Origin: Azolla caroliniana
Taxonomy: Eukaryota > Plantae > Polypodiophyta
Assembly (NCBI GenBank): GCA_043228905.1
Contig: JBHGNT010000004.1
Span: forward strand, 24,428,001-24,492,000
Direction: 5' to 3'
DNA: 64,000 nt
A program made the translations under genes and the position numbers. Of this stretch, positions 1,566-44,850 are shown piece after piece; position 1 is the first letter of the stretch; each line of letters begins with the position of its first letter. The notes below the pieces were generated by a model, which saw only the letters and a program-made list of their open reading frames with translations, searched no databases and was not told the DNA's origin.

Positions 1566-1835
1566 TGTCGAGAACTGAACGCTCCCTATATGCAACGCTC
1601 GGCCACAACCAAGCTTAGATTCATGCACAGAAAATGGGAAATAAAGAACGACACAAAGGAGAGAAAAGGTACACAAGATGTTTACGTGGAAAACCCAAAC
1701 TAAGGGAAAAAACCACGGCAGCCCACAGGCTGCAAACTATCACTATGTTGGAATGTACAAACAGTGAGTTCACGGAGGCAATGACCTCGTGCTCACGATC
1801 TTCGCCACAGGCGGCGGTTACAACAGAGGCAACGA

Positions 1836-1872
<37 letters not shown>

Positions 1873-2380
1873 ACTGTTACGCGCTCTAATCTCGTGCAAA
1901 ACAAGAATGACAACGACAACTCTCACTAAAGGTTTGCCCCAAGTCATATTTATACTAATATGACTTTTCGGCTATTTACAAATACAGCCTTGATGGACTC
2001 TCAAAAACATATTTACGAATATGTCTCTTCATCCGGTTCTCACCGGGTCTGCACCATCCGGTTCTCCGTAGCCGGGTACTCCTCATCCGGTCTTCACTGG
2101 GTTTGTATCATCTGGCTCTCCGTAGCCGGCTACTCCTCATCCGGTCTTCACCGGGTCTGTATCATCCGGCTCTCTGTAGCTGGGTACTCCTCATCCGGTT
2201 CATACCGGGTCTGCACCATCCGGTTCTCCGTAGCCGGGTACTCCTCATCCGGTCTTCACCGGGTCTGTATCATCCGGCTCTCCGTAGCCGGGTACTCCTC
2301 ATACGGTTTCGGCCTCGGCCGAGTTTGTTCATCGACACTGTTCTTCTCCCTTCCCATCCGGAGGGACCTGTCTCCCAACA
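1566..2380 (-). repeat. 3' LTR of copia-1 (815 bp)
   Basis: Near-identical to 14383-15141. Minus-strand TATAAATA at 1947-1954 and a (GA)n tract. PPT AGGGGGAGTT adjacent at 2381-2390. Confidence 0.95.
2025..2294. repeat. 54-bp CCGG-rich tandem repeat x5 in LTR U3
   Basis: Unit ctcYtcatccgg...tccgtagccgggta repeated 5 times. It produces the 18-aa periodicity of ORF 1960-2550. Confidence 0.9.
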
Positions 2381-2390
2381 AACTCCCCCT

Positions 2391-4719
2391 TCACTCCGGC
2401 ATGGGGTGTCTTACCAGTCCGATTCTCTTCCGGCATGCATCCAGCTTGTCGGGTATCAACACTTTGGTCAGCATATCTGACCCATTCTCGGCCGTGTGGA
2501 TCTTCATTAGCGCGAACTCCTGGTCATCTACTCTTTCCCGGATCCAATGATACCTCCGCTGGATATGCTTCGTCCGGGAATGGTAGGCCGCATTCTTAGC
2601 AAGGTGGATGACACTTTGACTGTCGCAATAGAGTTGGTATTCATCTTGCCGGATACCGAGCTCTCCGATGAAGTCGTTCATCCATAAGATTTCCTTACCG
2701 GCTTCCACAGCCGCCATGTACTCCGCCTCTGTGGTTGACAATGCAACCGTCTTCTGCAGCCTCGACTGCCACGAAACAGCTCCCCTTGCATATGTCATTA
2801 CATACCCGGATGTAGACCGGCTGGTATCCACATCAGCCGACATGTCCGAATCGGTGAAACCGTCAAGTTGAGGTTTTCCGGAGCTGAATCGGAGACACAT
2901 ATTTGAAGTGCCCTTCAAATACCGGAGTATCCATTTGACCGCGTTCTAGTGCTCCTTGCCGGGATTGCTCATAAACCGGTTCACCACTTCGACTGCGTAT
3001 CCTATGTCCGGTCGGGTACAAACCATTGCGTACATCAAGCTCCCGACGGTAGAGGCATATGGAATCTTCATCATATCCGCCTTCTCTGCTTTCGTCTTTG
3101 GGCTTTGCTTACCGGATAGCTTGCAGTTTGCCGGAAGTGTCGATCCGACCAGTTTCGCATCTGACATGTTGAACCGGTGAAGCACCTTTGTCACGTACTT
3201 CTCCTGTGATAGCCATAAGTGCTTCGCTGACCGGTCCCGAATGATGTGCATCCCCAGCATCTGTCTTGCCAGACCCAAGTCTTTCATTGAGAAGGTCCGG
3301 TTAAGAGCCTTCTTCAACATCCGTATTTTGACTTGGTCATGTCCGACGATCAACATGTCATCTACGTACAGAAGGAGTATCAGGAAGTCGCCTCCTTCAA
3401 ACTTCTTCACAAACACGCAGTGACCGGCCTGCGTCTTGTGGTACCCTTGATCGGTCATGAAGGAGTCGAACTTCCGGTACTATTGTCGAGGGGCCTGCTT
3501 TAACCCGTAGAGGCTCTTCTTCAACCGGCAAACCAGGTGCTCCTTCCCTTTCTCCACGAATCCTTCCGGTTGCTGCATGTAGATCTCTTTTTCGAGGTCA
3601 CCGTGAAGGAATGTCGTCTTCACGTCTAGCTGCTCTACCTCGAGGTCCATGCTTGCCGCTATACTCAGCACCGTCCGGATGGAGGTCATCTTTACTACCG
3701 GGGCAAATATCTCGTCGAAGTCCACGCCCTTCTTCTGCTGGAACCCCTTCACCACGATCCTGGCTTTGTATCTCGGGGGGTTGCCGGCATCTCCCGGTTT
3801 CAACTTGTACACCCACTTGTTTCAGAGTGCCCGCTTTCCTTTCGGCAACTCCACCAATTCGTACGTATGGTTCTCATGCAGGGAATCCATCTCATCCTGC
3901 ATGGCACTCAACCATTTTCAGCTGTGGGTGTCTTCCTTCGCTTCTTCGAATCTTTCTGGCTCCCCCTCATCGGTCAGCAGAACATGCTCTGCATCCGGAA
4001 ATCTCCGGGGGGCCCTTCTCTCTCTGAGAGGATATCTCTGTCTCTGGGCTTCGGTGACCGGCTCATTCATCTACTCTTCATCCGAATCCGATTCGGGGTC
4101 TTGGCCGGTTCCGGTTTCAGCTTCCTCTACTTCTTCTTCAGCCCGTTCAGTATCCTCACCGTAACCGTCTGGTCCCTCGAGTGCTAACCGGTCTCTTGCC
4201 GGTTGGGTCCGCTCATCGTAGAGTCGATCCTTACCGGTCGACTCAGAGTTCATTATCTTCTTCTCATGCTCCCAGTCGGCGAGCGTCTTGTTCTCCATGA
4301 AGATAATATCTCGACTCCGGAATACCTTCTTGTCGACCAGGTCTCACAGTCGGTAGCCGAACTCATCGTCACCGTAATCGAGGAATATGCATGGCCGGGT
4401 CTTTGGATCTAACTTTCCTCTCTGGTCCTTAGCTATATGCACGTACGCGAGACACCCGAACACCTTCAGATGCCGATAGGATACTTCCTTACCGGTCCAC
4501 ACTCTCTGTGGCGTGTCTCCGTCCAAGGGTATTGAGGGTGATCTATTTATCACATATGTCACCGTCGACAATGCCTCAGCCCAAAACTTCTTGGGTAGTT
4601 TTGCATGCGCTAGCATACTCCGGACCCTCTCCATTATGGTCCGATTCATCCTCTCGACCAGTCCGTTTAGTTCCGGCGTCTTCGGCACGGTAAATTCGAG
4701 TTGGATTCCCTTCGAGCGG
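2391..4719 (-). pseudogene. copia-1 pol 3' part (integrase C-term, RT, RNase H) with in-frame stops
   Basis: Motifs HGDLEKEIYMQQPEGF, LYGLKQAPR, LLYVDDML, STTEAEY and RTKHI. All ORF fragments share one frame. Confidence 0.93.
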
Positions 4720-5806
4720 TGTCGTGGCGTGGCTCGCCTAGAAGCGTAGCGTTGCGTAGACAAAAGATATCGTGAAAGTGAGGAAGGAATCACTGGGATT
4801 ATGGACGGAAGAGACGAAAGAGTAGAGATAGATAAATAGTGATCAACAAGATATGACAAGATAGGATATAGAATGATATTTGAAGCAATAAAAGAGATTT
4901 ATAATTATTTGATGAAAGAGTTACAAAAGTGGTTGTTCACATCGTTGAACCTCCGAACTTTGTCTTGCAAGGTAATCGCTCTTCTCTTTCTTGATCGTCG
5001 ACCACTACAATCTTCACTTCAATATTTTAATGAAGATAAGGCTCGAACCGCCTCCCTCTTGTTGAGAGTTGACCACCACGACCGCCAAGCTAGAGCTCCA
5101 CCTTTCTCTTGAACTTCTTCCTTTCTTTCTCTATTTTATGGTATCTCTTATGTAATACATAATTTGATTGATATCTCATACATATCCCCCTTTGATCTTC
5201 TCTTTCACCATTTAAATAGGTGCCCCCATGCATATGATGCATTGGAGGGTACAAATCATGCATGTAGTGCATGAAATGCATGTGATGCATGATCGCCATT
5301 TGGCATTCATGCATTACATGTGATGCATGATAAACATCTCGCTCATTTGAGCTTTTATGTATGAAACAATATATGCAATAACAATAAACATGAAAACATA
5401 ATCTTAAAGAGAAAGGGCCTAGCCTAATGGTAGGTGTGTTGACTTTAGTGTATGAGGTCGTGGGTTTGAGTCTCAAAATACTATTGAATACAACATGCAA
5501 CTTTATTTTTATATCATGAAGCAAATCCTTTATGTAATATAAAGTATATATAAAGTATGCTTTATTTTCTGAATATTATTAGTGTAGAGTAAATGGTAAG
5601 ATTTGAGAGTCATAGGGTGGGCTTATTGGTTCAAGTCCTCTCTTGTTCGTGTAATATAATATATTTATATATATATATATATTATTTTTCTATACATATA
5701 TATAATATTATCATATGTGTTGTTATAAAACATTATCAAATGTTATTTTAGTTACGTATTTATCTTATTGTAGACTTTTAATGTGAAGCTTTCGTACTTC
5801 ACGACA
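4720..5806 (-). repeat. 3' LTR of gypsy-1 (1087 bp)
   Basis: Duplicate of 11543-12631. PPT AGAGGGGGTGGA at 5807-5818. Confidence 0.95.
5420..5638 (+). other. Two tandem tRNA-like A-box/B-box modules inside the gypsy-1 LTR (second copy 12243-12461)
   Basis: TAGCCTAATGGTAGG...GGTTYGAGTC and TAGAGTAAATGGTAAG...GGTTCAAGTCC have identical, tRNA-like A-to-B spacing. The first retains D- and T-arm pairing. Confidence 0.55.
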
Positions 5807-5846
5807 TCCACCCCCTCTAGACCTGCACATCCTCCGGCATGTGCCA

Positions 5847-8800
5847 CTATCTTTCATCTTCATGTTGATCTATCGGAGGAGGTTCAAGCTCAAACCTTTT
5901 CTTAAATACTTTTATCCTCTTTCCAGCTACCACGTTTAGGATTAGTGTCCCATCCAATTCACTAAGCTTATAAGTAAAGTTATCATATACTTTTCTTACT
6001 ATATAAGGCCCAAACCATCTTTCAGCGAACTTGCGGACGGTGCTATGTTGATTATCTAAACTGCTATCGTACACGAGCACCCAATCTCCTTCTTCTATTT
6101 TCTTAGGTCGAATTCTATGACTTTTATCAAAACGGATTTTATTCTTTAGTCGAGCCTCCTTTAATCGTTGGGCTGCTATTTCTATATCTTCAGGTCGACG
6201 CTCTAATTGTTGAATTCGCAAAGCAAGTAATTCTTCTCTGCTCACCTCTTCTCTCCATGGAATAGATATCCATGACATAATTGATTCTTCTATCGGCATG
6301 ATGGGCTTTTGGCCAAGTATCAATTCAGCTGGCATGTATCCTGTTACTGAACTATGAGTTGTTCGATCCGCCCATAGTGCATAAGGTAGCATGCGTGGCC
6401 AATCTCTTATTTTACCTTTACAGCTTTTCACGATCGCCTTAACTATTGGGCTATGTCCTCTTTCGATCTTTCCATTGGCTTCTGGATTATACGCAGTTGT
6501 AAGTGATAATTTGACCCCTATTCGGCTGAAGAATTCTCTAGCTTCATCAGAGTCGAGTTCTCCTCTATCTGCAATTATTTTACCAACACACCCGTAACGA
6601 CATATTACATCTTCTAACAAAAATTTACATACAGCTCTAGTTGTTTTTTGTCGTAGTGGTCTTCCTTCTACTTGGTTTGTAAGGTCTTCTCTTGCTAGTA
6701 CTAAATATCGCATTTGACCTTCCCCAAGTGGCATTGTCACTAAATCAACCATCCATTTATAATGCATTGATGATGAATATGTTGGTTTTAGCTCATCTCG
6801 ATACCGGATAGTTGAATACCTCTGGCAAACCTCACAGGTTTCCACAAATTTCGTTACATCTTTATACATATGTGGCCACCAATACTTTTCTTTCAACTTC
6901 ATAAATGTCGCCCATATGCCTCTATGTCCTGCCCACAAACTATCATGGAATTCATTAATTAATTTTCTCTTAATGTCATCCTTACAAATGACTCGAAGAG
7001 GATTTTCGGTTGGCCTTTTTGGACGCCTCCATAAATGCCCTTCATGTAAAAAAAACTTGAATGCTCGTCTTCGAAATTCATTTAATTGTTTCTTCGACCA
7101 TGATGGGTTGGCTTCTTGAGTCTTTAGAAAATTTCCTATTTCTAACCATTGACCTTCATACTCTGTGTCTTTGAACATTATACTTACATTAAACTCATCA
7201 TGAGGCGTAATAGATTCTTGATGAGCAAATTGATGGCTTGTAGTTGCCCAGTTCCTATATTCAGTTTGCATCACCTTTTCATTTATGAACCTTGCCCTTG
7301 ACAACATATCTGCAACTGGGTTGTCTTTTCCCTTTATATGCCGCAATTCTGGGTTCATGGTTCTGATGTATGCAATCCACCGAAGCATTGCAATATCTGG
7401 TGTCGTGCAACTTGCTATCATTCCAATGAGTGGCAAACAATCTGTTTCAACCACTACATCTGCTCCGATCAAGTAATCTCTATCTGTTTTTAATGCAGTA
7501 AGCAAACCCCACAATTCTCGTTTAACTTGTGCATAGTTTCTTTGTCTTTCATTTAATATCTTTGCTCCAAATCTGATAGCATATCGATGTTGGTCTTCAT
7601 CTTCTTGGTTGATAACCCAACCGATCCCGATTGGGCTAGTATCAACTGTTACTATAATTGGTCTTTTACCTTTGTAGTCTGGTTGACGAAGAACTGGTGT
7701 TTTCAGTAATGCTTCTTTCAGCTGTTGAACAACTTGTGTATGTTCATCAGTCCAAATAAACTTCTTTCCTTTTCTTAAAAGTTGGTAGAGAGGATCTGAG
7801 ACATGTGCAAAGTGTGGTAACCAAATATGATAAAACACACATGCACCCAAAAATCTTCTCACCTCTGTTACCGAGTCGCAAACTTCCTTCATATTTTGTA
7901 TTGCGTTAATTTTGATCGGTGAAGGCTTCCTCCCATACCACCCACACATATGACCAACTATTAGAACTTCGTTTTGCCCAAAGCAAGACTTTGTTCCTGA
8001 TAGTGTCAAATGTACCTGCTCAAGCTTATTTAAAATATTTTCACAGTCATTAATGTGATCCATCACAAACTTTCTGCAACCATTTCCAACCATAGTCTCA
8101 TCTTTCTCTCTTTCTAAGCATCCCTCCTTAATAGGAATATCATCTAAAAATGGCATAGTTACCTTTGGGATGTATTCATGTAGAACTTTGTTCATTGCAT
8201 TCATCATATGAGCAACCGAATTCGTCGCACCTTGAGGTAGAGTGCACATTCGAACCAACCCAATTGGTGTTTTCATTGTTGTGATATTGCGACTATCAAT
8301 TGCTAGTTGAAATTGGTCGTATCCTGAATATAGGTCTCCCATAGAGTAAATCGCTCTGCCAGCAAACGCTTCCGCAAATTCATCAACGATCGGTCCGATT
8401 CCCGCATTTCGGATTGTGACTTTGTTGACTGGTTGTAGATCTTGAATGAATCTTAGAGAACCATCTTTCTTTGGAACTGTGAACCATCTATTGGAGTATG
8501 GTGCATTTGAAGGCTCTAAAATCTTCATCTTGACTTTATCCTTCAGCAACTCCAACAATTGAGGTAATCGAGCTCTCGGTACTGCAATAGGTTTAAAATT
8601 CCAAGGAATATGAGGGATAGTAAATATTACCATTGGCGTCACCACCTTTGGATTTACACAACCAATCTCCTCAGCTTTGAATGCAAACGCTTTCCCATGC
8701 CTAAAGATCATTTCTTTGAAAGTCACGATCTCTGATTGCAGAAGAAATTCACCCCTTCCGATTCTCAAGTTATTTATTGTCTCCGAAGTGAAGTGATGTC

Positions 8801-9380
8801 CGATCTTCTCTATTGGTCGAAGCATAGGCTCGGTTGCTGCTGCCTCCATCTTCTCTTCACTACCAATAGGTAATGGTACTGCAGCAGGTTTGACCTTTTT
8901 ATCTATTGTTTTGTATTTTGTATTACATAAACTTTCTACTTCTTCATATTTACAATTATACCTATCAATCTCATAATACATATCAATTGAGTTTACATGT
9001 ATCTTTCTAACATTCTCATCATCTTCTTTCAAATACATTTCTAACTCTTCTAAAGTATTTGCAAAAGAAATTTCTTCCATAACACTTTCAATCTGCTCTT
9101 CCATTTCAAGTACTCCAGTATCCTTCAATGCCTGCTGAAACAGATTAGCATTCTTTTTCAAGTTCCTCTTGCATTCATACATCCTAGTCACACATATAGC
9201 ACCACTTTCAGAAACATGAAATGACTTATTCATATGTTGTAATGCCCTATATGAGGGTCTTTTAATAATGGGACTATTGCAACCCTCACTCGCAACAGTC
9301 CTAGTCAAAAACCTGATTATCAAAATCATCACAATCTTTTGGTATTGAATGATCACGAAGCTCTTGCTTGTTCCTCTCAT
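5847..9380 (-). CDS. pol: gypsy-1 Pol (RT, RNase H, integrase with HHCC finger and GPY/F motif; no chromodomain)
   Basis: Uninterrupted 1177-aa ORF with DLYSGYDQ, LPQGATNS, PFLDD, VTVDTS, HDSLWAGHRG..CEVC, ADRGE and WFGPY. Probably expressed by frameshift rather than from its own ATG. Confidence 0.93.
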   Translation of the reverse strand: MRGTSKSFVIIQYQKIVMILIIRFLTRTVASEGCNSPIIKRPSYRALQHMNKSFHVSESGAICVTRMYECKRNLKKNANLFQQALKDTGVLEMEEQIESVMEEISFANTLEELEMYLKEDDENVRKIHVNSIDMYYEIDRYNCKYEEVESLCNTKYKTIDKKVKPAAVPLPIGSEEKMEAAATEPMLRPIEKIGHHFTSETINNLRIGRGEFLLQSEIVTFKEMIFRHGKAFAFKAEEIGCVNPKVVTPMVIFTIPHIPWNFKPIAVPRARLPQLLELLKDKVKMKILEPSNAPYSNRWFTVPKKDGSLRFIQDLQPVNKVTIRNAGIGPIVDEFAEAFAGRAIYSMGDLYSGYDQFQLAIDSRNITTMKTPIGLVRMCTLPQGATNSVAHMMNAMNKVLHEYIPKVTMPFLDDIPIKEGCLEREKDETMVGNGCRKFVMDHINDCENILNKLEQVHLTLSGTKSCFGQNEVLIVGHMCGWYGRKPSPIKINAIQNMKEVCDSVTEVRRFLGACVFYHIWLPHFAHVSDPLYQLLRKGKKFIWTDEHTQVVQQLKEALLKTPVLRQPDYKGKRPIIVTVDTSPIGIGWVINQEDEDQHRYAIRFGAKILNERQRNYAQVKRELWGLLTALKTDRDYLIGADVVVETDCLPLIGMIASCTTPDIAMLRWIAYIRTMNPELRHIKGKDNPVADMLSRARFINEKVMQTEYRNWATTSHQFAHQESITPHDEFNVSIMFKDTEYEGQWLEIGNFLKTQEANPSWSKKQLNEFRRRAFKFFLHEGHLWRRPKRPTENPLRVICKDDIKRKLINEFHDSLWAGHRGIWATFMKLKEKYWWPHMYKDVTKFVETCEVCQRYSTIRYRDELKPTYSSSMHYKWMVDLVTMPLGEGQMRYLVLAREDLTNQVEGRPLRQKTTRAVCKFLLEDVICRYGCVGKIIADRGELDSDEAREFFSRIGVKLSLTTAYNPEANGKIERGHSPIVKAIVKSCKGKIRDWPRMLPYALWADRTTHSSVTGYMPAELILGQKPIMPIEESIMSWISIPWREEVSREELLALRIQQLERRPEDIEIAAQRLKEARLKNKIRFDKSHRIRPKKIEEGDWVLVYDSSLDNQHSTVRKFAERWFGPYIVRKVYDNFTYKLSELDGTLILNVVAGKRIKVFKKRFELEPPPIDQHEDER
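9251..9314 (-). other. Programmed ribosomal frameshift signal: slippery G_GTT_TTT, 5-nt spacer, H-type pseudoknot
   Basis: Stem1 GGACTGTTGC/GCAATAGTCC, stem2 GTGAGGGTT/GACCCTCAT and A-rich loop CATTATTAAAA lie exactly at the ORF1/ORF2 overlap. Confidence 0.75.
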
Positions 9381-11475
9381 GATTTGGGCGAACGGTCATA
9401 AATTGTACAGTTCGTCGTCCATCTTCACTACGGATTTTCGCATAGGCAGAACCATTGTCGAGGACTTTGGTCTCCATCCGTACGGCTGTAATGTATGGTT
9501 GCCCCAGGATTATTGGATAGGTAGATCCTTCCTGCACAAAGAAATGTTGATCTACCTCTATATCACCAATAGTAACCTTTACATTTGGGCATGCACCAAA
9601 TAAATCTTCCGTGACTGATGTGGCAGCTTTTACTCGCCAACCATGTTGAGTATCAATTGGCCATCTACCTTTCCTGTAAAAATCAGCACTCATTATATTT
9701 ATTTCAGAACCATGATCAATAAGTGCCATCACGGGGTCTGGAACATTTCCAATCTTCACATGATGCTCAGTAGTGGCTCTTGCCCAACATTTGAGAGAGT
9801 AATGGCTTCTTACATCTGTTGAATTTATCATTGAGGTTGATGCATGTTGAGAGTCAACAACAATATTGTTTGACTCGTTGCTCACCACTTCATATGCCAC
9901 CTTCGGATTTGTCTCTTTAACCTGCTCATTTACTTGCTTCTTTCTTCGCACAATATCAATTATTTCATCATGAAATTCCTTTTTTGCAATACCTAACACT
10001 TCTCTTAGTGTAAATTCTACTCGACTGTCTAGTATTCTTGTTTCTAAAACTTTCTTTAAATCTGTATCCTTTTCAATATCAGACATTAATTTGAATGAAG
10101 GACCAGATTTACCTTTTTCAACTTTTGCGTCCATCTCTTTTCTTTTGCTTTCTCTTGTTTCATGCTTTTTGGTTGAGCCAATCTCCTCATCCGATCTTTT
10201 CCTTTTTTCTTCCACTATCACCTCATGCTCTTGGTGTTTTGCCATTTGAGCATAGACTGTCATAACATCTACTGGAACATCCCATCCAGTGTTTTTCCTC
10301 ACAGAATCTCCGGCAACACGAAGGTCTTCCATCTTCATCTTTTGTTTTTGTGCGGTACTTACAACCTTCTCCCAGAATGGTGATCGGGATGGCATGTCAT
10401 CGAGACGCACCCCTGCCGTTGCCGAGTAGTACATTGCGGAAGCCTTCTTTGCTTCAGCTTCTTCAAATTTAACCTTAACACCACCATCACCAAAGTTCTT
10501 TGTAAGCAGAGATCTAGTTTCAGTTAAGTAAATGTTACCATTTTTCCAATAGACCAAGTCTCGATTCTCCATGTCTTTATATTCTTCACAATCACGTAGA
10601 CGATGGTCGAGACTATCACACCACATGCATCGAGGTCGAAATGGTTCCCTTGACCTCGAAGTCTGACCATTCTCAAGCTTTGCCACTTTAATTGTTAGAT
10701 CTTTCATACTTTGAACTAAATCATCAAGCAAAAACTCACTCTTAGTTCCCGTCATTTCTCGTGGTTGATGGACCATTTCGTGTGATGGTTCTCGACCAAG
10801 TCTTTGAACTTCGATGTTTTGCTCAAGCCGATTTGTGTTTCCCACATGTGGTATTTGTAGCATTACACCATTCCTTTGCATTCTTTTCATAAATTTATTA
10901 CAAGCATTTGTTACCTCATTCCAATCTGTCGTTATACCATCCTCGGTATTTGGCACTTCAAGCATAAATTCCAATTCTTTTCTATATCTCTTGTCAACTG
11001 CCTGCAAAAATAAAGCAACCTTTTGCCAAGACAAAGAATTTCTTTCTTCTGGCTTTAGGTGTCCATACATCCTATCAAACTCTCTTTTTGTGTCAGACAC
11101 AGATAACCCTTTATCTTCTTTTAAGATCCATTCATGAAATGAACGCATAGTAACTCGAGAGAAATCCTCACGAGCATATTCAGACACAAGTGCTTCTTTG
11201 AATGCATTCCAATCCAAACTATGCAATGCTTGTATTTCATGAATTCTATCTCTTAATTCCATGTCCACTAATTTATAAAAGTTTGCTATCATATTGACAT
11301 CATTTATACCAAACATTTCCATTTCATCATAATATATATTCACATACTTCGAAATATTTGTGCCATCAAACATACCAATCTTCTCTCGGACTTCTCGTAA
11401 GGCATGAAATAATCGATCTTGATTCAACTTTTTAATAAACAACATTACCGGATCCATTGTACTCGTACTTGCCAT
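9301..11475 (-). CDS. gag: gypsy-1 Gag-protease (ORF1)
   Basis: 724-aa intact ORF with zinc knuckle CMWCDSLDHRLRDC, aspartic protease motif ALIDHGSEIN and IILGQPY. Confidence 0.9.
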   Translation of the reverse strand: MASTSTMDPVMLFIKKLNQDRLFHALREVREKIGMFDGTNISKYVNIYYDEMEMFGINDVNMIANFYKLVDMELRDRIHEIQALHSLDWNAFKEALVSEYAREDFSRVTMRSFHEWILKEDKGLSVSDTKREFDRMYGHLKPEERNSLSWQKVALFLQAVDKRYRKELEFMLEVPNTEDGITTDWNEVTNACNKFMKRMQRNGVMLQIPHVGNTNRLEQNIEVQRLGREPSHEMVHQPREMTGTKSEFLLDDLVQSMKDLTIKVAKLENGQTSRSREPFRPRCMWCDSLDHRLRDCEEYKDMENRDLVYWKNGNIYLTETRSLLTKNFGDGGVKVKFEEAEAKKASAMYYSATAGVRLDDMPSRSPFWEKVVSTAQKQKMKMEDLRVAGDSVRKNTGWDVPVDVMTVYAQMAKHQEHEVIVEEKRKRSDEEIGSTKKHETRESKRKEMDAKVEKGKSGPSFKLMSDIEKDTDLKKVLETRILDSRVEFTLREVLGIAKKEFHDEIIDIVRRKKQVNEQVKETNPKVAYEVVSNESNNIVVDSQHASTSMINSTDVRSHYSLKCWARATTEHHVKIGNVPDPVMALIDHGSEINIMSADFYRKGRWPIDTQHGWRVKAATSVTEDLFGACPNVKVTIGDIEVDQHFFVQEGSTYPIILGQPYITAVRMETKVLDNGSAYAKIRSEDGRRTVQFMTVRPNHERNKQELRDHSIPKDCDDFDNQVFD

Positions 11476-11519
11476 GTTGATGTTGATCTTTACTTTAGAT
11501 GTCTCTTCTACTTCCCCGT

Positions 11520-11537
11520 TTCACGTCGGGTTCACCA
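11520..11537 (-). other. Primer binding site complementary to tRNA-Trp 3' end
   Basis: TGGTGAACCCGACGTGAA matches the recalled plant tRNA-Trp 3' end ...TTCACGTCGGGTTCACCA. It sits 5 nt from the 5' LTR. Confidence 0.8.
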
Positions 11538-11542
11538 AATTG

Positions 11543-12631
11543 TGTCGTGGCGTGGCTCGCCTAGAAGCGTAGCGTTGCGTAGACAAAAGATATCGTGAAA
11601 GTGAGGAAGGAATCACTGGGATTATGGACGGAAGAGACGAAAGGGTAGAGATAGATAAATAGTGATCAACAAGATATGACAAGATAGGATATAGAATGAT
11701 ATTTGAAGCAATAAAAGAGATTTATAATTATTTGATGAAAGAGTTACAAAAGTGGTTGTTCACGTCGTTGAACCTCCGAACTTTGTCTTGCAAGGTAATC
11801 GCTCTTCTCTTTCTTGATCGTCGACCACTACAATCTTCACTTCAATATTTTAATGAAGATAAGGCTCGAACCGCCTCCCTCTTGTTGAGAGTTGACCACC
11901 ACGACCGCCAAGCTAGAGCTCCACCTTTCTCTTGAACTTCTTCCTTTCTTTCTCTATTTTATGGTATCTCTTATGTAATACATAATTTGATTGATATCTC
12001 ATACATATCCCCCTTTGATCTTCTCTTTCACCATTTAAATAGGTGCCCCCATGCATATGATGCATTGGAGGGTACAAATCATGCATGTAGTGCATGAAAT
12101 GCATGTGATGCATGATCGCCATTTGGCATTCATGCATTACATGTGATGCATGATAAACATCTCGCTCATTTGAGCTTTTATGTATGAAACAATATATGCA
12201 ATAACAATAAACATGAAAACATAATCTTAAAGAGAAAGGGCCTAGCCTAATGGTAGGTGTGTTGACTTTAGTGTATGAGGTTGTGGGTTCGAGTCTCAAA
12301 ATACTATTGAATACAACATGCAACTTTATTTTTATATCATGAAGCAAATCCTTTATGTAATATAAAGTATATATAAAGTATGCTTTATTTTCTGAATATT
12401 ATTAGTGTAGAGTAAATGGTAAGATTTGAGAGTCATAGGGTGGGCTTATTGGTTCAAGTCCTCTCTTGTTCGTGTAATATAATATATTTATATATATATA
12501 TATATATTATTTTTCTTTACATATATATAATATTATCATATGTGTTGTTATAAAACATTATCAAATGTTATTTTAGTTACGTATTTATCTTATTGTAGAC
12601 TTTTAATGTGAAGCTTTCGTACTTCACGACA
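11543..12631 (-). repeat. 5' LTR of gypsy-1 (1089 bp)
   Basis: Duplicate of 4720-5806 with a 2-nt (TA)n length difference. Confidence 0.95.
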
Positions 12632-12635
12632 GCGG

Positions 12636-14353
12636 CAGTACTCCTCGAACTGCCCCCGGTATTCTCCTCCGTTATCTGCTCGAACTGCCTTCAGCTTCCG
12701 GCCGGTTTCTCTTTCCACTCTTGCGTGGAGCTCTTTGAAGACGGATAACACCTGATCCTTCATCTTCAACGGTGTGGCCCACAGCTTCCGGTTGTGGTCA
12801 TCTATGAACGTCATGAAGTACTGCGCTCCGGCATGTGACTTCGTGTCTACTTGACACACATCCGTATGCACCAACTCCAGTGGTGCATTACGTCTCATCG
12901 GTGGCCTTGGTCGGAAAGAGGTCCGGTTTTGCTTACCGGCCAAACAATCAGTGCACTTCTCCAAGTGCACGTTCTTCACTGGAATGAGGTTGTTGTCTGC
13001 AAGCCTCTTCATCCCCTTCTCGCTCATATGACACAGCCTCTTGTGCCACAACTCACCGGCAGTGTCAGATGCCATGTTCACTTCTTCCGGACATAACCGG
13101 GCACTCATCAGGTACAATGTGTTGACCTTCCGGGCCCGAGCCACAATTAGGTTCCCTTTGCTGAACTTCATGACACCATTTCGGATGCTACCCGTGTAGC
13201 CTTCATCGTCTAGCCGACCGGCTGATATCAGGTTCAGACGAACCTCCGGAACGTGTCGGACATCCTTCAGCAGCAACTTGCATCCGGTTGGTGTTGACAG
13301 CCACAAGTCTCCTATGCCGACAATTCGGCATGTGCCTTCATTCCCCATCCGGACACAGCCGTGATCACCGGCTGAGTAGGATGAGAAGCATTTTCAGTTC
13401 GGGGTAAGGTGGAACGATGCTCCAGAGTCTACCACCCAGGTCATCTCGTCGCCGGCAAGGTTTATCTCACTCTCCTCGGTGATGAGCATCAACTCTTCTT
13501 CACTTGCCGCGATTGTCGTTGTTCCCTTCTGATCCGGCCCCCTCCGGTCTTTACCGTTCCAGTCCGGGGTCCGCTTCGAATCGGTACCGTCGGTCTCCTT
13601 ATCTTTTCGGAAATGCCGACAGTTCTTTTGGAAGTGTCCCGGCTTGCCGCAATAGAAGCAAGTGGGCCTCCCCCTTGACTTTGACCGTGTCCCCGACTTC
13701 TGCCGGTTCTGGGGACTACAGTTTCTATGTCTTCCGCGTTCCGATTCGGTAAGGAGCGCTTTGGAGTCGGAGCTCGTATCCTTATCTTTCCGACGCGCCT
13801 CCTCATCTAGCAAGCTCGACTTTACTCTTGCTAGGGATAACCGTTTTCCTTCCGGCCCGGCGTTGCCCAAAGTGACAACCAATGTCTCCCAGCTATCCGG
13901 GAAGGAACCGAGCAGGAGTAGTGCTAGTACCTCATCGGCGAGAGGTACTTCCAATGAAGTTGCCTAGTGGATCAGCCCCTGGAAGGCATTCATGTGCTCC
14001 GCCATGCTAGAGCCATCTTGGTACCGGAGTCTTACTAGCTTCTGGAATACCGAAACCTGATTAACAACATTTTTGTTTTGAAACATTATGCTGATCTTCT
14101 CCCAGAGCTCATGAGCTTTGCTCTCTTCATTGAAGTTGTTGTACAGGCTCATGTCGATGAAGCACCGTATGTACGCCATTGTCTTCATGTGCATCACCTC
14201 CCATATCGCGGCGTCGATTTTGTCCGACCTCTTGTCCCCGAACTGAATCGGCAGCCAGAGGTCTTTAACCACGAGCATGTCCCTCATCTTCGACTTCCAC
14301 ACTGAATAGTTGGAGCCGGTGAGCTTGAACATGCCGCCAAATGATTTGTCCAT
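12636..14353 (-). pseudogene. copia-1 gag, protease and integrase N-terminal part with in-frame stops
   Basis: MDKSFGGMFKLTGSNYSVWK start, CFYCGKPGHFQKNC knuckle, WVVDSGASFH protease, LWHKRLCH..CTDC, VHTDV and ADNGGEY. Confidence 0.92.
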
Positions 14354-14368
14354 TTTTTGTGTCGTTTT

Positions 14369-14380
14369 GCTCTGATACCA
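14369..14380 (-). other. Primer binding site, tRNA-iMet
   Basis: TGGTATCAGAGC, 2 nt inside the 5' LTR boundary. Confidence 0.93.
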
Positions 14381-14382
14381 CT

Positions 14383-15141
14383 TGTCGAGAACTGAACGCT
14401 CCCTATACGCAACGCTCGGCCACAACCAAGCTTAGATTCATGCACAGAAAATGGGAAATAAAGAACGACACAAAGGAGAGAAAAGGTACACAAGATGTTT
14501 ACGTGGAAAACCCAAACTAAGGGAAAAAACCACGGCAGCCCACAGGCTGCAAACTATCACTATGTTGGAATGTACAAACAGTGAGTTCACGGAGGCAACG
14601 ACCTCGTGCTCACGATCTTCGCCACAGGCGGCGGTTACAACAGAGGCAACGATCTCTTTCTCTCTTTCTCTCTCTCTCTCTCTGTATACTGTTACGCGCT
14701 CTAATCTCGTGCAAAACAAGAATGACAACGACAACTCTCACTAAAGGTTTGCCCCAAGTCATATTTATACTAATATGACTTTTCGGCTATTTACAAATAT
14801 AGCCTCGATGGACTCTTAGAAACATATTTACGAATATGTCTCTTCATCCGGTTCTCACCGGGTCTGCACCATCCGGTTCTCCGTAGCCGAGTACTCCTCA
14901 TCCGGTCTTCACCGGGTCTGTATCATCCGGCTCTCCGTAGCCGGGTACTCCTCATCCGGTTCATACCGGGACTGCACCATCCGGTTCTCCGTAGCCGGGT
15001 ACTCCTCATCCGGTCTTCACCGGGTCTGTATCATCCGGCTCTCCATAGTCGGGTACTCCTCATACGGTTTTGGCCTCGGCCGAGTTTGTTCATCGACACT
15101 GTTCTTCTCCCTTCCCATCCGGAGGGACCTGTCTCCCAACA
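14383..15141 (-). repeat. 5' LTR of copia-1 (759 bp; four 54-bp units at 14840-15055)
   Basis: Duplicate of 1566-2380 lacking one 54-bp unit and 2 nt of the (CT)n tract. Confidence 0.95.
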
Positions 15142-20417: not shown

Positions 20418-22592
20418 CTAATGTTCATAGTGATCATGGAACAATTCAGAGCAAAGCTCATGGAAAACCTTGACGATGGTGGGGTGGTACTCCTCAGGGT
20501 TGAGGGAGAGGTAACACTGCAAGAGCTGTTGGAGTGGGCGGCGTCCTCGTAGCCCTTTCGCCACAACCATCTCCACCATCGATTCTTTGAAATCATGGTG
20601 CGGATCGTACGAGCTCTTCACCATAGCCACAGCTCCTCCTCCTCCTCCATTACTGCTAGTACTAGTACCCTTCCTATTCATGGCACCATGACCACATGAA
20701 TTCATCATCATGTTGCCATGCATACGATCGATCCGATTGTTCCCGGCAGGGCCAGACATCATCATTTCCTCGCCCACCAAAGATCTCGATGATGATGATG
20801 TGGATGCCGATGAGAATGATGCCGATGATGATGATGATGAAGGTGGAGGTGAGGGAGATGCCAATGCCGATGGTGATGGTGATGGTGATGGTGATTCTCC
20901 TCCCTCCATATGCTCTCCTTCGTAACCATCATAATCGCTTAGTATTTGTATCTCGCACGAAGTTGTCGAAGCCCACATCTGGGCAACCTCGTCTTCATCT
21001 AATTCATCATCAATCTCGTATAAGCCACCCGAATTCCCTTGTTTACTTTCTACTACATTGGCCTTGGTCTCGGCCGAATCCATGTCCATCTCTTCCTCCT
21101 CGGTGTAGTCAAGCCTGTGTCGATTCAAGCCGTAGAGCGGAGATCTCCTCCACCTAGCATTACTCGAGCGCATGTGTCCATGTCCATCCGGAGACCCCGC
21201 TCCTAGCTCAGATGTATCACTATTACCGTTGGTTCCCACATCCGCATGTTCGACACATTCCGGAGCCTTATCATGCAGGAAATGGCCATGGCCATGGCTA
21301 TGGGCATGCCTGGCCATGGCATTACTCAAGGACTCACATGAAGGCAATTGCTGAGCCTTGGCATTCAGCTTCATCTGCTTGATGGAGTCTCGGAGTTCGG
21401 CCAAAGAGATGACCTTCTCATGGAGCTTCGCAGCCGCAGCTGCAGCAGTTGCAGTTGCAGTTGCAGTCGCCATGGCTGGAGAGCCAGTGTTATTGCTATC
21501 CCAGCTGATTTCAGAAGCTATGGCGGCATTCGAGCTCACAGATCTTTGGGTACTCTCAGTACCTGCAGGAGTATAAACAGAGAAGCTGCTGCTGATGGTA
21601 CTACCAGCAGGAGTGTACAGAGCAGTGCTGCTGCTGCTGCTGCTGTTGCGGCTGCTACTGGCTATGGTGCTGCCATTCAGATTGCTGTTGGAGCTACTGC
21701 TACCTGGGGATTCATCTTCTTCACCGATGTGCCTGATGCTTTTCTGACGCGCCACATCCATGGCCATTCGACCTCCCTCTTCCACCGTGCTTCTGCTGCG
21801 TAGCTCTAATGGCATGGCCACATCTGCTAGGTCCACTGCATTCTCGTCTTCTGTCCCCCCTGCACTGCAGGATTCCTCCACCATACCATGCCGAGGCACC
21901 ATCGCCGATTCCTCGAAGACCTTATTAGTAGTAGTGGTGGTAGTGGCTGCTATGTCCACCACGTCGTCTGCAGACTTGCAGACGAGCCGCGAGACCACAT
22001 TGCTCTTCGTCGCCGTCCCGAAGCCTGCGGGAGGCCCTGAATTCATAGAAACGGTGAGCTTCTGGTGCCATTTCACGTGATCGCGTTTGCTACCCGCCAG
22101 TGTCTGATGATCGTTGATGGGATGGGGCGATGGGAGAGCCGCATTCGACGCCCTTAGCTTGCGAGCTGCCATGGCGGCGGCCTTGCTCTGAGAGCTGCTC
22201 ACAGTGGCTCTACATGTACAGCCTGCATCCACCACCATACACTCCCGCACTTCCTTACCCTTCCGAACAACTCGAGTGCTCAAGGCCTGCGTGTGATACT
22301 GATTCTTATGAAGATTGGAGTGTTTGACTGCAACATAGGGTTTAGAAACACGGTTAGGGTTAGGGTTAGGGTTAGGGTTAGGGTTAGGGTTAGGGTTACC
22401 CCTGACCACACTTTGATGATGAAGGATACCTTCAGAAACCTCTGTTTTGATGGCTCGTCGATCATCATCATCATCATCATCACAGCAGGTTGTAGCAAGC
22501 TGCTCATTGTCTGCTTGACCTGCAATGGTGCTGTGATCGTTTTGCTTGTAGAACCAGATATGGGGTCTCACATGGAGCAACCTGAACCTCAT
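20418..22592 (-). CDS. OFP: OVATE family protein (transcriptional repressor OFP), intronless, 724 aa
   Basis: C-terminal OVATE domain AVAMVKSSYDPHHDFKESMVEMV..LQQLLQCYLSLNPEEYHPTIVKVF. N-terminal MRFRL..PHIWFYK resembles the OFP1-4 N-terminal motif. Confidence 0.93.
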   Translation of the reverse strand: MRFRLLHVRPHIWFYKQNDHSTIAGQADNEQLATTCCDDDDDDDRRAIKTEVSEGILHHQSVVRGNPNPNPNPNPNPNPNRVSKPYVAVKHSNLHKNQYHTQALSTRVVRKGKEVRECMVVDAGCTCRATVSSSQSKAAAMAARKLRASNAALPSPHPINDHQTLAGSKRDHVKWHQKLTVSMNSGPPAGFGTATKSNVVSRLVCKSADDVVDIAATTTTTTNKVFEESAMVPRHGMVEESCSAGGTEDENAVDLADVAMPLELRSRSTVEEGGRMAMDVARQKSIRHIGEEDESPGSSSSNSNLNGSTIASSSRNSSSSSSTALYTPAGSTISSSFSVYTPAGTESTQRSVSSNAAIASEISWDSNNTGSPAMATATATATAAAAAAKLHEKVISLAELRDSIKQMKLNAKAQQLPSCESLSNAMARHAHSHGHGHFLHDKAPECVEHADVGTNGNSDTSELGAGSPDGHGHMRSSNARWRRSPLYGLNRHRLDYTEEEEMDMDSAETKANVVESKQGNSGGLYEIDDELDEDEVAQMWASTTSCEIQILSDYDGYEGEHMEGGESPSPSPSPSALASPSPPPSSSSSSASFSSASTSSSSRSLVGEEMMMSGPAGNNRIDRMHGNMMMNSCGHGAMNRKGTSTSSNGGGGGAVAMVKSSYDPHHDFKESMVEMVVAKGLRGRRPLQQLLQCYLSLNPEEYHPTIVKVFHELCSELFHDHYEH
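22354..22395 (+). repeat. (TTAGGG)7 inside the OFP CDS, encoding (NP)n
   Basis: Seven perfect TTAGGG units. Confidence 0.95.
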
Positions 22593-23108
22593 GTCGCCTT
22601 CTTGAGTACATACACTCGCCCACCTTATAGCAAAACCCTAAATTTTGTAATTTGGAAAATAAAAGAAGAAGAAGAAGAAGAAGAAAAAAAAACCCCTAAG
22701 AAGACATGGCTATGGCGGTGGATACAGCTAGATGGGCCTAGTCTCTGCGTCCATTATTATTTGCGCGAGGATTCATGGAGATGGAGATGGAGATGGAGAT
22801 GGAGATGGAGATGGAGAAATCATTAGACTTGTGTCTAGCAGACATTGATGTGGGTTGGGGTCCTCTGTTTTTTTTTGCTTTTCTTTTCTTTGTTGTGGCC
22901 CTTCTCTCCTTTGGACACACTGTGAACAGAGAGACAAACACAGAGAGGCAGACACAGACAGACAGACAAATAACACGCAGAGAAACAGAGACAGATGATA
23001 CACACACAGAGAGAGAAACAGAGAGAGAGAGAGAGAGAGCCTTTTTGACGTTACCTTACGTGTGAAAGCAGTACAACAAACACACTGATTGTCTGCATGC
23101 ATTAAATG

Positions 23109-40159: not shown

Positions 40160-41265
40160 AAGCCTTCATGGCAGCTTTGATATGAAGGATCTTGGTGATG
40201 CAAATCACATCCTTGGCATGCGAATACTCCGAAACCGATCGAAAGGGGTACTCTTTCTATCTCAGCAGGAGTATATCTCTAAGGTTTTGTAGCGTTTCAA
40301 TATGGAGGGGGGGAAAACAATTGGGGTTCCATTGCCTCCATATTTGAAACTCTGTGCAGAAGACAACCCTACATCTGATGATGAGAAGGCTGAAATGGCT
40401 AAGGTTCCATATGCTTTTGCCATTGGCAGTTTGATATATGCGATGGTTGCTACACGCGCTGATATTGCCTTTGCAGTGGGAGTGGTTAGTAGGTATATGG
40501 CAAATCTCGGCAAAAAGCATTGGGAAGCGGTGAAAGGTATTATGAGATACCTCAAAGGCACAAAGGACTTGTGTATTTGCTTTGGAAAGCAAAAGGCATC
40601 TGTCGTTGGTTTTATGGATGCGGTGTTGCGTTGCTACGCGCGTGCGTGGAGAAATGAGGCGGGACCACCGGGGTCTTGAACCGAAGAGCAGGTGATAGGA
40701 GGGGAAAGAGAAAGAGAGAGACGACCGGTTACGTATGAGCAAAGAAACACAGGGGCACGGCCCGTCAACGCAGAAAACACGAATGGACACAGAGACAGAG
40801 AGACACGAATGTTTGTATATTAACAAATGACACAAAACAACAGAGCACGTGAGCGGTTACAACCGAATAGGCCGGCGAACAGATGCTGATGCTTGTTCGT
40901 CTGCGCACGAAAGGGGATAGGATGAAGGTGCTGCCGGAAGCACACGGGCGTTCCTCGAAGCAGCGCGAGCCTCCCGAAATCCTGCAGAGAAGAGCGATGG
41001 AGAATGAACAGAGGAGAAGCGTTCGGTTACAGTTCGACAACACTTCGTCCTCCTCAATGCGCAATCCCTTCTCCCCTGTGTCTCCCTCTCTTTTATAGCT
41101 TCAGGAAGGGAGCCGTCTCCCTCATTTACTTCCTACCTACCGAATCTAACTACCCCCGGATATGCCTATGTACCTAATTCCCTATTATATACATTAAAGG
41201 GCGTGCACGCGTGAAGAGCCGGTTCACGCGCGCTATACACCGATTGCGCTAAGGGACGGTTTTCT

Positions 41266-44200
41266 TCACGACATCCGCCCCCACCTAACCGTGCATCCAC
41301 CGGTATTGGCCAAAATTGTGCTCTGGTTGGAGAAAACCGGTCCGAGTTCCGGTTCTTCGTCCATCGGTTCGTCCTCCGTTTCGGACTGTTCGTCGTCGTT
41401 GTCCAGGCCTCTTAGATCCGGTTCGCCGTCGTGGCGCTTCTTGAACGCTTTGATCCGCTTCCCTGCTACCGGTATCGCCATCCTCGTACCGTCGAGTTCC
41501 GCCAGGTGATACGTCCCGTTGTCGTTGGCGCTCGTTACCACGTAAGGCCCGAACCACCGCTTTGCAAACTTCCGTGTTGCCCGGTGCTGGTTGTCGAGGC
41601 TGCTGTCGTAGACTAGCACCCAGTCTCCTTCCTCGATTTTCTTTGGTCGGAGCTGGTGGGTTCGGTCGAACCGGGCTTTGTTCCTCATCCTCGCCATCCG
41701 AAGTCTCTCCGCTGCTCGTTCCACGTCCTCTGGCCTCCGCTCGAGCTGCCGTATACGCATCGCTAGCAGTTCTTCCCGGCTCATCTCGTCTCTCCAGTCC
41801 ACTGTCGCCCAAGAGGAGATTGTCCGTTCCATCGGCATGATCGGCTTCTGTCCGAACATGAGCTCTGACGGCATGATCCCGGTTACCGAACTGTGTGTTG
41901 TCCTGTCCGCCCACAAGGCATAAGGTAACAGTCGTGGCCAGTTCCCGACTTGGCCTCCGCATGCCCGGACTAATGCTTTGACGATCGGTCCGTGTCCGCG
42001 CTCCACCTTCCCGTTCGCCTCCGGATTGTACGCTGTGGTGAGCGAGAGCTTGACCCCTAACCGGTCGAACAACTCCTCGGCCTCTTCGGCGTCCAACTCC
42101 CCGCGGTCAGCCACGATCTTCCCGACGCACCCGTACCGGCATATCACGTCCTCGATCAGGAACCGACACACAGCCGCGGTCGTTTTGTTCTGCAGGGCTC
42201 GGCCTTCCACCTGGTTCGTCAGGTCCTCCCGGGCCAGCACCAGATATCGCATCTGCCCTACGCCCATCGGCATCGTCACCAAATCTACCATCCATTTGAA
42301 GTTGATGACTGGAGGGTATGTAGGGTGAAGCTCGTCCCGATGTCGGACTATGGAGTGTATCTGACAGCTCTCACAAGTCGTCACGAACCGATGTACGTCC
42401 CGGTACGGTCTCGGCCACCGGTACTTCCCCTTTAGTTTCTCGAACGTGGGCCACGTTCCACGGTGTCCAGCCCAGGGGCTGTCGTGGTAGGCCTTCAGTA
42501 ACTCCTCCTGTTCCTCCATCGCCACTACTTGGAGCGGGATGCCGTTTCTCTTCTTCGGGTGCTTCCACAAGTATCCGTCTCGGAGAAAGAATCGGTACGC
42601 TTTCATCCGGATCCGGTTGGCCTCGTCCTTTGTCCATGACGCGTCCGACGTCATCGTCCTTAAGAATCCTCCAATCTGCAGCCACTCCCCATCGTACTTG
42701 CTCTCGTTAAAATCGTTAAGCGCCGGAGTGCTCCCCCCCTCGGTTGTTACGTAAGCCGCCTCGAAGAAGTCCACGCCGACTTCCTCGTCCTCCGAAACCA
42801 TGCCGCCCTCGTCGTCGAATTGCGCCCTCGAAAGCATGTCGGCCATGGCATTGTCTTTCCCGGAAATGTGTCGTATTTCCGGATCTAGGGACTTGATGTA
42901 CACTATCCACCTGAGCATTGCCAGGTCCGGGGTTGCGCATCCAGAAACCATGCCCAGAATCGGCAAGCAGTCCGTCTCGATAATCACCTCCGTCCTGATC
43001 AGATAGTCTTTATTGGCCTTCACCGCCGAAACGATACCCCAGAGTTCGCGTTTAACCTGGGCGTATCCTCGCTGTCGCTCGCTGAGGACCTTCGCACCGA
43101 ACCGGATTGGGAACCGAATGCCGTCCTCATCTTCTTGGTTGACAACCCATCCGATCCCGGTTGGACTCGTATCTACCGTTATGTAGATGGGAGTGCCTTT
43201 CTCGTAGACAGCCTTCCGGAGTGCCGGAGCTGCAGCAAGAGCCTCCTTCATCTTTCGGACCGACTCCGTATGCTCGTCTCGCCACTCGAATTTTCGCCCC
43301 TTTTTCAGCAACCCGTAAGGCGGCTCGGCAACATGGGCGTAATGCGGGATCCATATGTGGTAGAACGCGCATGCTCCCAAGAACCTCCGTACCTCCGTGA
43401 CCGAGTTACAGTCGGGCTTCATTGCGGAGATGGCTTCCACCTTAGCCGGAGACGGTTTCCGGCCATACAGTCCGCATAGATGTCCGACGACCATGATCTC
43501 TGATTGCCCGAAGGCCGATTTCTCCCGGGAGAAGGTGAGCCTCGCATCCTCTAGCCTCTGCAGCACCCTCTCGCAGTCGTCAATGTGTGTCGCCACGAAT
43601 TTCCGGCATTCGTCCGGTCCGATCGTTTCGTCCTTTTCCTCCACCGGACATCCCTTGATCGGGATGTCGTCCAAGAATGGCATGGTGATGTCCGGGATAC
43701 AATCCCTCAACACCTTGTTCATCGCATTCACCATGTGGGCCACCGAGTTCGTCCCTCCTTGTGGCAGGGTACACATCCGCACTAGGCCGAGTGGAGTCCG
43801 CATCGTCGTAATGTCTCTGCTCTCTACGGCTAGTTGGAACTGATCATACCCCGAGTACAGATCACCGACCAAGTAGATCGACCTTCCGGTGAAGGCCTCT
43901 GCGAACTCGTTTATCGTTGGTCCGATTCCTGCGTTCCGAATGGTCACTCTGTTGACTGGTTGCAGGTCTTGAATGAAGCGCAACGTCCCGTTCTTCTTCG
44001 GTACAGTAAACCACCGGTTCGAGTACGGGGTGCTCGACGGTTCGAGGATGCCCATATCGACTTTTTGCCTCAACAGCTCCATCAGCTCCGGGATGTGAGC
44101 TCTCGGTACCGGAATTGGTTTGAGATTCCACGGCACATGCGGTACCGTGAATATCACCATCGGCTTCACGACTGTCGGGTCTACGCACCCGATCTCTCCC

Positions 44201-44610: not shown

Positions 44611-44784
44611 GGCTCCGTTGATTTCTTCGCTGGGCCCGAGAACTCCGCACGCCCGAAGTCACTCCTCCGCCCTTGTCTTTTCTCGGCCAACGACGCCGAC
44701 TATCGTACACTCTCCGTTGTCGGAGAAACAAAACTTCCTACTTATGGTACAAGGATTCTTCGGTTTCGCCTCTATCGTACATTT

Positions 44785-44850
44785 GTGGGGTTTTCCCAGA
44801 GCATCCGGACTGTCGTGGCCCCACGCCTTGACAACCCTCTCTAAAAATCC
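44785..44850 (-). other. -1 ribosomal frameshift signal: G_GAT_TTT, 6-nt spacer, H-type pseudoknot
   Basis: Stem1 GGGTTGTC/GACAGTCC and stem2 GTGGGG/CCCCAC. The pol frame is -1 relative to ORF1. Confidence 0.7.

Follow-up and report, generated by a model that had tools for sequence, protein, structure and literature searches.

A predicted −2 ribosomal frameshift signal with a downstream pseudoknot between Gag-protease and Pol in a Ty3/gypsy retrotransposon lineage of seed-free plants

Described −2 frameshifting and related plant elements

Natural cases of −2 ribosomal frameshifting named in the available passages of reviews are phage Mu, the arteriviruses and the Trichomonas vaginalis virus TVV1. 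Arteriviruses use the slip site RG_GUU_UUU for −2 as well as −1 shifts, with AG_GUU_UUU in PRRSV nsp2 (excerpts of PMC7618472; also PMC11818727), and the attribution of this site to arterivirus nsp2 in an earlier note on the DNA studied here agrees with the former source as far as its excerpts go. The stimulator in PRRSV is described there as a complex of nsp1beta and PCBP on a C-rich motif 10–11 nt downstream, without an RNA structure. In an engineered reporter, by comparison, a U6A slip site combined with the IBV pseudoknot gave −2 frameshifting at spacers of 5–8 nt (Lin, Gilbert and Brierley 2012, PMC3458567, available parts). The statement of the earlier note that short spacers favour −2 slippage is likewise borne out by reporter studies, in which, according to the accessible text, the optimum lies 1–2 nt below that for −1 (PMC3458567, PMC4937337). 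Among the Trichomonas vaginalis viruses, TVV1 is reported to produce its polymerase by −2 frameshifting and TVV2–4 have the polymerase in the −1 frame (PMC3622925, in part). The passages available on TVV1 and phage Mu describe no pseudoknot stimulator.

For plants, the accessible text of PMC5009743 gives G_GAU_UUU with a stop close behind as the −1 site of the pea enation mosaic umbravirus, and refers to a 2003 survey reporting pol in the +1/−2 frame together with a conserved structure in Sirevirus and other plant elements. Phygy is a lineage of non-chromovirus Ty3/gypsy elements with a 4-bp NCGN target duplication, a length of 7656–9968 bp, no extra domain and a tRNA-Trp primer (Neumann et al. 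2019, PMC6317226, available sections); its ORF organisation is given in these sections as not determined and no frameshift signal is described. The literature searched, which for the most part did not extend to subscription papers, supplements or element database annotations and was partly available as excerpts, yielded neither a −2 frameshift in a retrotransposon nor a description of the signal of the Ty3/gypsy lineage presented below.

The element and its junction

The window, a 64,000-nucleotide stretch of Azolla caroliniana DNA, contains a Ty3/gypsy element with the following features, given in window coordinates:

4720–12631, minus strand: Ty3/gypsy element of 7912 bp, carrying the predicted shift site
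11543–12631, minus strand: 5' LTR, 99.36% identical to the 3' LTR
11521–11537, minus strand: primer binding site, likely for tRNA-Trp, adjoining the 5' LTR
9301–11475, minus strand: ORF1, Gag and aspartic protease, 724 aa, ATG at 11475, C-terminus VFD-stop
9307–9314, minus strand: slip site AG_GTT_TTT, at which the −2 shift is predicted; PRRSV nsp2 is cited with the same octamer
9302–9306, minus strand: spacer of 5 nt, containing the −1 stop (9307–9305) and most of the ORF1 stop (9303–9301)
9251–9301, minus strand: predicted H-type pseudoknot, stem 1 pairing 9301–9292 with 9280–9271 and stem 2 pairing 9289–9281 with 9259–9251
5847–9311, minus strand: pol ORF with linker, RT, RNase H and integrase, starting at the predicted landing codon, frame open from 9395
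4720–5806, minus strand: 3' LTR, with a purine tract upstream at about 5807–5820

The two LTRs differ by five substitutions and one 2-nt gap, and the element is flanked by a 4-bp target duplication GCGG at 4716–4719 and 12632–12635, which reads CCGC on the element strand. We take the primer binding site to match tRNA-Trp. ORF1 showed a weak match to DUF4100 below the Pfam cutoff; its protease label is based on the name 'Peptidase A2' carried by ORF1 homologs and on a DHGS motif, which we presume to belong to the protease. No chromodomain was detected in the element with Pfam. ORF1 has named homologs in Physcomitrium, Adiantum and Riccia, and relatives of the element occur in mosses, liverworts and ferns. 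As in Phygy, GCGG fits the NCGN pattern, the length of 7.9 kb is in range and there are homologs in Physcomitrium; the primer may be tRNA-Trp. On target site and length, Phygy is a candidate lineage for the element.

The element sits inside a copia-like element (1566–15068) that is split by the insertion and has LTR-like repeats at 1566–2253 and 14383–15068 with 95.5% identity. Elsewhere, the window holds a 739-codon low-complexity ORF (20418–22637, minus strand), whose C-terminus presumably resembles an OVATE domain, as well as arrays of short self-complementary repeats at 50888–53120 and 61620–62173, accompanied by a pair of inverted repeats of 430–450 nt, which may represent a non-autonomous DNA element.

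ORF1 ends in the codons CAG (9315–9313), GTT (9312–9310), TTT (9309–9307), GAC (9306–9304) and TAG (9303–9301), and pol lies in the +1/−2 frame; both had been stated in the earlier note and are confirmed here. Unshifted ribosomes stop one codon past the slip site. Also as described before, a ribosome shifted into the −1 frame would run into TGA immediately, and reading through the ORF1 stop in the 0 frame ends after four codons. Two related loci, L001 and L002, share the slip site, the 5-nt spacer, the pseudoknot and the +1/−2 phase of pol; their −1 frames end without a new codon (L001) or after about 5–6 codons (L002). The constituents of canonical −1 frameshifting are present, namely the heptamer G_GUU_UUU, a 5-nt spacer and a predicted H-type pseudoknot, but in all three elements the downstream pol ORF is not in the −1 frame, unlike in canonical pseudoknot-stimulated −1 frameshifting.

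The earlier description of the pseudoknot (5 nt after the slip site, stems of 10 and 9 bp, A-rich loop) was reproduced in our model, which comprises a 5-nt spacer, a 10-bp stem 1, a 2-nt loop 1, a 9-bp stem 2, no loop 2 and an 11-nt A-rich loop 3. In a custom pair-count search it scored 44, compared with a maximum of 31 in all 73 windows tiled along the element, and none of 200 mononucleotide shuffles reached this score. Stem 1 alone gave folding z-scores of −3.4 and −4.2. ViennaRNA, which cannot model pseudoknots, predicts instead a 12-bp hairpin, which draws on two bases of stem 2. In an alignment of 18 chosen junctions, 84% of the stem 1 cells were paired and 13 cells carried two-sided changes; none of 500 shuffles reached this and slid controls were 23–46% paired, in a control that ignores relatedness and with the structure taken from the window sequence. 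Within the window element, L001 and L002, 55 of 57 stem cells were paired, with seven one-sided and zero two-sided changes, and the shuffle control was uninformative. The outer pair and the junction pair of stem 2 are each broken in one of these three rows.

The junction resembles that of PRRSV nsp2TF in having the octamer RG_GUU_UUU in the 0 frame, a productive conserved ORF in the −2 frame and an immediate −1 stop. It differs in that a predicted pseudoknot lies 5 nt downstream, while the arterivirus C-rich motif CCCANCUCC was absent 10–11 nt downstream in all three −2 elements. A pseudoknot with a long stem 1 is shared with the engineered U6A/IBV construct; that artificial reporter, however, has another heptamer, whereas the signal in the window is natural, selected and accompanied by −1 sister families. 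With TVV1 and phage Mu it would have a natural −2 shift in common, but their slip sites differ and neither is a retroelement. Sireviruses are Ty1/copia elements. Their shift is placed at a gag/pol junction with a hairpin and its mechanism is unsettled in the available passages, whereas the junction of the window element lies after the protease.

Slip site and phase within and beyond the family

The earlier note had raised the alternative that one T was lost from an ancestral six-T −1 site, and the number of Ts was therefore followed in contigs from 8 of 24 listed sequencing runs, covering six studies, organisms A–E and a leaf metagenome, with indel thresholds of 1% for one set of runs and 2% for the other. 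No indel in the T run was listed in any of the eight runs, at summed contig depths over the slip site of 114, 1455, 1363, 2435, 922, 2503, 37 and 43; contigs lose rare variants and one of the eight runs may be the source of the window itself. Nearby indels were restricted to 9253 and 9289, in one contig each, in the 1% set and to 9479–9484 in the 2% set. No six-T form was listed for the contigs of these runs or occurs in L001 or L002, and the six-T pattern had no match in the whole window. Moreover, all five listed members of the close-family cluster that reach the end of ORF1, and the representative, end in VFD. The loss of a T in this copy is thus contradicted by five Ts in eight of eight runs and in the sister family represented by L002, and also by the −1 relatives, which carry GAT and no extra T, the closest ones with the same five-T run. 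The five-T AG_GTT_TTT is a property of the family and not a defect of the copy.

Among the substitution variants listed (6 and 26 more exist), those in stem 2 mostly preserve pairing; this holds for 9289, for 9252 and for the change of 9281 to C. The stem-2 junction pair is lost when 9281 becomes A, as in L001 and organisms D and E, and changes at 9251 and 9257 in single contigs of low depth are further exceptions. A CAG-to-TAG variant at 9315, directly 5' of the slip site, had a depth of 327 out of 1332 in run X7 (about a quarter) and 56 out of 2197 in run X8 (3%). Such copies, which we infer to be unable to make Pol at the slip site, are possibly a non-autonomous subfamily. Single low-depth contigs in runs X13 (depth 24) and X17 (depth 32) skip or replace the junction, at 9254–9322 and 9302–9335, and may represent diverged subfamilies. 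Run X20 is probably DNA and silent on expression.

To place the junction in its lineage, the best 80 of 184 loci from a metagenome contig scan were taken. The pol frame was callable in 58 of them, with 55 in −1 and three in +1/−2; the other 22, two of which have no ORF1 stop, are outside these counts, and L063 and L067 among them look −1 by eye. Combining the callable loci with the two elements in the window and removing identical junctions left 45 distinct junctions. Of these, 41 are −1, with the heptamers G_GAT_TTY (38), G_GGT_TTT (2) and G_GTT_TTC (1), and three are intact +1/−2 junctions, namely the window element, L001 and L002, all with AG_GTT_TTT. The remaining one, L069 (G_GAT_TTT), was rejected as a +1/−2 junction as it has stops between the junction and RT and is decayed. 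The umbravirus heptamer is that of the 38 −1 sisters (last base C in two of them) and not that of the −2 clade. Among the ORF1 ends of 120 listed out of 178 homologs, 82 read x[D/N/G]F, two read VF-x and 14 are of other types; in the other 22, D/G-F stands five residues from the C-terminus. From the junction counts, a frameshift after the protease would be a lineage-wide feature, in the form of a −1 signal with a pseudoknot.

Several observations concern other members of the lineage. The second window element (40624–47664, minus strand, junction at 44841) has G_GAT_TTT_TAG, a pseudoknot and pol in the −1 frame, so the earlier reading of this element (gypsy-2) as G_GTT_TTT_TGA was wrong; its LTRs are 96.6% identical, ORF1 is split, a pol-frame stop lies about 185 nt past the junction, and the flanks hold no matching target duplication. 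A pseudoknot search that allows only 0–1 nt in loop 2 misses this element. In the −1 families of L039, L056, L057, L059 and L060, ORF1 ends within the pseudoknot, five codons past the slip site, which is G_GGT_TTT in L057 and L059. Genome contigs contained two loci of the lineage, L081 and L082, the former with a −1 type junction; these plant-lineage elements in a cyanobacterial genome bin and a Streptomyces assembly are likely contamination. The exact −2 junction pattern occurred in 2 of 82 loci. A homolog search with the gag region, which matched four proteins, revealed no further close family, and no relatives were found in viral contigs.

The +1/−2 phase has been maintained over a long time. 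The pol ORFs of L001 and L002 comprise 1153 and 1100 codons. Between the window element and L002, ORF1 is 74% identical at the amino-acid level (dS 1.39, omega 0.11) and pol 82% (dS 1.05, omega 0.10), without stops in 1098 aligned codons, which indicates that pol has long been expressed from this phase. The linker 3' of the pseudoknot has an omega of 0.21, which argues for constraint on the pol frame near the junction. In L002, the pol frame carries a stop 26 nt upstream of the ORF1 stop, so that the shift has to fall within a 26-nt overlap; there, the slip-site TTT is the sole codon with cognate re-pairing. In quick trees with SH-aLRT support only and some long branches, the window element, L001 and L002 formed one clade (support 100, 99 and 99) within a group of −1 families (97). 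As only three −2 elements from two families were found, a single evolutionary origin is suggested. A basal placement of the clade, with the deep outgroups, was rejected (p-AU 0.00165). The protein P0215 from Calypogeia fissa, a distant ORF1 homolog, has a VFY-stop end as in the L002 family; a tree test rejected its placement in the −2 clade (p-AU 0.0053), and judged by its sequence it possibly comes from an independent −2 junction.

The landing codon is TTT in all 41 −1 junctions. In 37 of them the stem anchor follows the heptamer at a distance of 6 nt (four were not called), compared with 5 nt in all three −2 junctions. In 16 of the 41, the best model has a physical spacer of likewise 5 nt or less because stem 1 gains a pair, as in 9 of the 15 −1 rows of the covariation alignment; spacer length alone thus does not divide the groups. 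The heptamer probably matters as much as the spacer, as it decides if −2 re-pairing is possible. L054 (1255–1310), with GG_GTT_TTC, a 6-nt anchor and pol in −1, offers a natural control for spacer dependence, although its contig has low coverage and is partly decayed, with a stop in the pol frame after 187 codons.

Mechanism, alternatives and implications

In the proposed mechanism, some ribosomes would slip back two bases at AG_GUU_UUU, stimulated by the predicted pseudoknot 5 nt downstream, and produce Gag-protease-Pol. With GUU in the P site and UUU in the A site, tRNA-Phe would re-pair perfectly on UUU two bases back, and the match of tRNA-Val to AGG would be poor; the arterivirus nsp2 site is alike in this. 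Ribosomes slipping by one base would stop at once in the window family or after about 5–6 codons in the L002 family. The signal may have originated from the G_GAU_UUU −1 signal of the lineage by a net one-base change, which would move the upstream frame without disturbing the register of U run, landing codon and pseudoknot. G_GAU_UUU would be unable to support −2 re-pairing in the A site (AUU), whereas G_GUU_UUU would be able to do so. In the sisters, with GAT TTT over the T run, a −1 slip would put the A-site tRNA-Phe on the first three Ts; in the −2 clade, GTT TTT lies one base further on. Since the alignment from the T run through stem 1 is gapless between −1 and −2 junctions, a −2 slip would reach the same TTT, 7 nt before the stem. 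L003 and L004, near in the tree, read CAG GAT TTT TAG and have one base more between CAG-G and the T run, and so a single base could explain why heptamer and phase are new and the spacer is shorter. Points that weigh against a −2 slip are the poor re-pairing in the P site, the dependence of this octamer in arteriviruses on a protein stimulator whose C-rich motif the three elements lack, and the CAG-to-TAG variant ahead of the slip site.

Other routes into pol have to be weighed against this. A +1 slip at or next to UUU, with the pseudoknot and the nearby stop acting as they do in antizyme, would end in the same frame, and the antizyme site with its pseudoknot is reported to shift by +1 in mammals but by −2 in budding yeast (PMC3458567, available parts). 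Perfect +1 re-pairing of UUU is confined to L002, whereas in the window element and L001 tRNA-Phe would sit on UUG and only −2 re-pairs perfectly. Furthermore, a sense codon and not a stop comes after UUU, and the sisters go backwards onto the homologous TTT; we consider a +1 slip unlikely. Two successive −1 slips, that is a tandem −1 slip followed by a slip of the P-site tRNA-Phe with UGA in the A site, would yield the same product as a −2 slip. The five Us do allow pairing of tRNA-Phe at 0, −1 and −2, and the −1 stop is immediate in the window element and L001, but L002 has a sense codon in the −1 frame at this place and nevertheless keeps the phase, which makes this route very improbable.

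Expression of Pol without a ribosomal frameshift, by splicing, reinitiation, a subgenomic RNA or polymerase slippage on the T run, appears quite unlikely. Both CAG|G and TAG|G resemble splice acceptors, the latter with a U-rich stretch on its 5' side, the CAG-to-TAG variant retains YAG, and all three elements share a phase-compatible GC dinucleotide 52–58 nt before the stop. This GC has a poor consensus, though, and would leave introns of only about 45–60 nt, while a phase-compatible GT donor 3' of the protease is absent from the window element and L001 and the last 700 nt contain no GT donor that the two families have in common. The window element and L002 share a Met at about codon 40 of pol, which could serve a route of this kind, but the residues ahead of it are conserved in the pol frame and slip site and pseudoknot are retained. 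Five Ts are generally a short run for polymerase slippage. Least credible, at a very small probability, is a damaged −1 signal, caused by a one-base loss in this copy or an assembly error, or a non-autonomous clade that never makes Pol. Homopolymer errors are frequent, the decayed relative L069 has a spurious +1 phase, and the loss of rare variants from contigs would permit a rare six-T master copy; against this stand the T run free of indels in all eight runs, the VFD ends throughout the close family, the intact pol with its low omega and the 99.4% identity of the LTRs.

We therefore regard it as likely that a pseudoknot stimulates −2 frameshifting from Gag-protease into Pol, and that this signal descends from a −1 signal; the −2 option as such was already put forward in the earlier note and would fit all of the comparative evidence, which is drawn from sequences. 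It is also fairly probable that the clade of the window element has the first −2 frameshift of a retroelement that is both natural and essential, and the first for which a cis pseudoknot is the only stimulator, and that it arose from a −1 signal by one base with the landing codon still 7 nt from the pseudoknot; P0215 is perhaps a second, independent switch.

According to the available parts of the literature, the best-studied natural −2 frameshift needs a protein stimulator, and the −2 shifts shown to be driven by structure come from engineered or heterologous reporters. The lineage described here has two extant sets of signals with one pseudoknot register and different predicted outcome (−1 versus −2); they form matched natural cassettes, which could test how slip-site re-pairing and spacer tension set −1 versus −2. 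If true, the one-base switch with a fixed distance of the landing codon would be a natural test of the mRNA-tension model. For a widespread Ty3/gypsy lineage of seed-free plants, the ORF organisation would be settled as Gag-protease, frameshift and RT-RH-IN, and elements of this lineage with pol in the +1 phase should not be annotated as broken.
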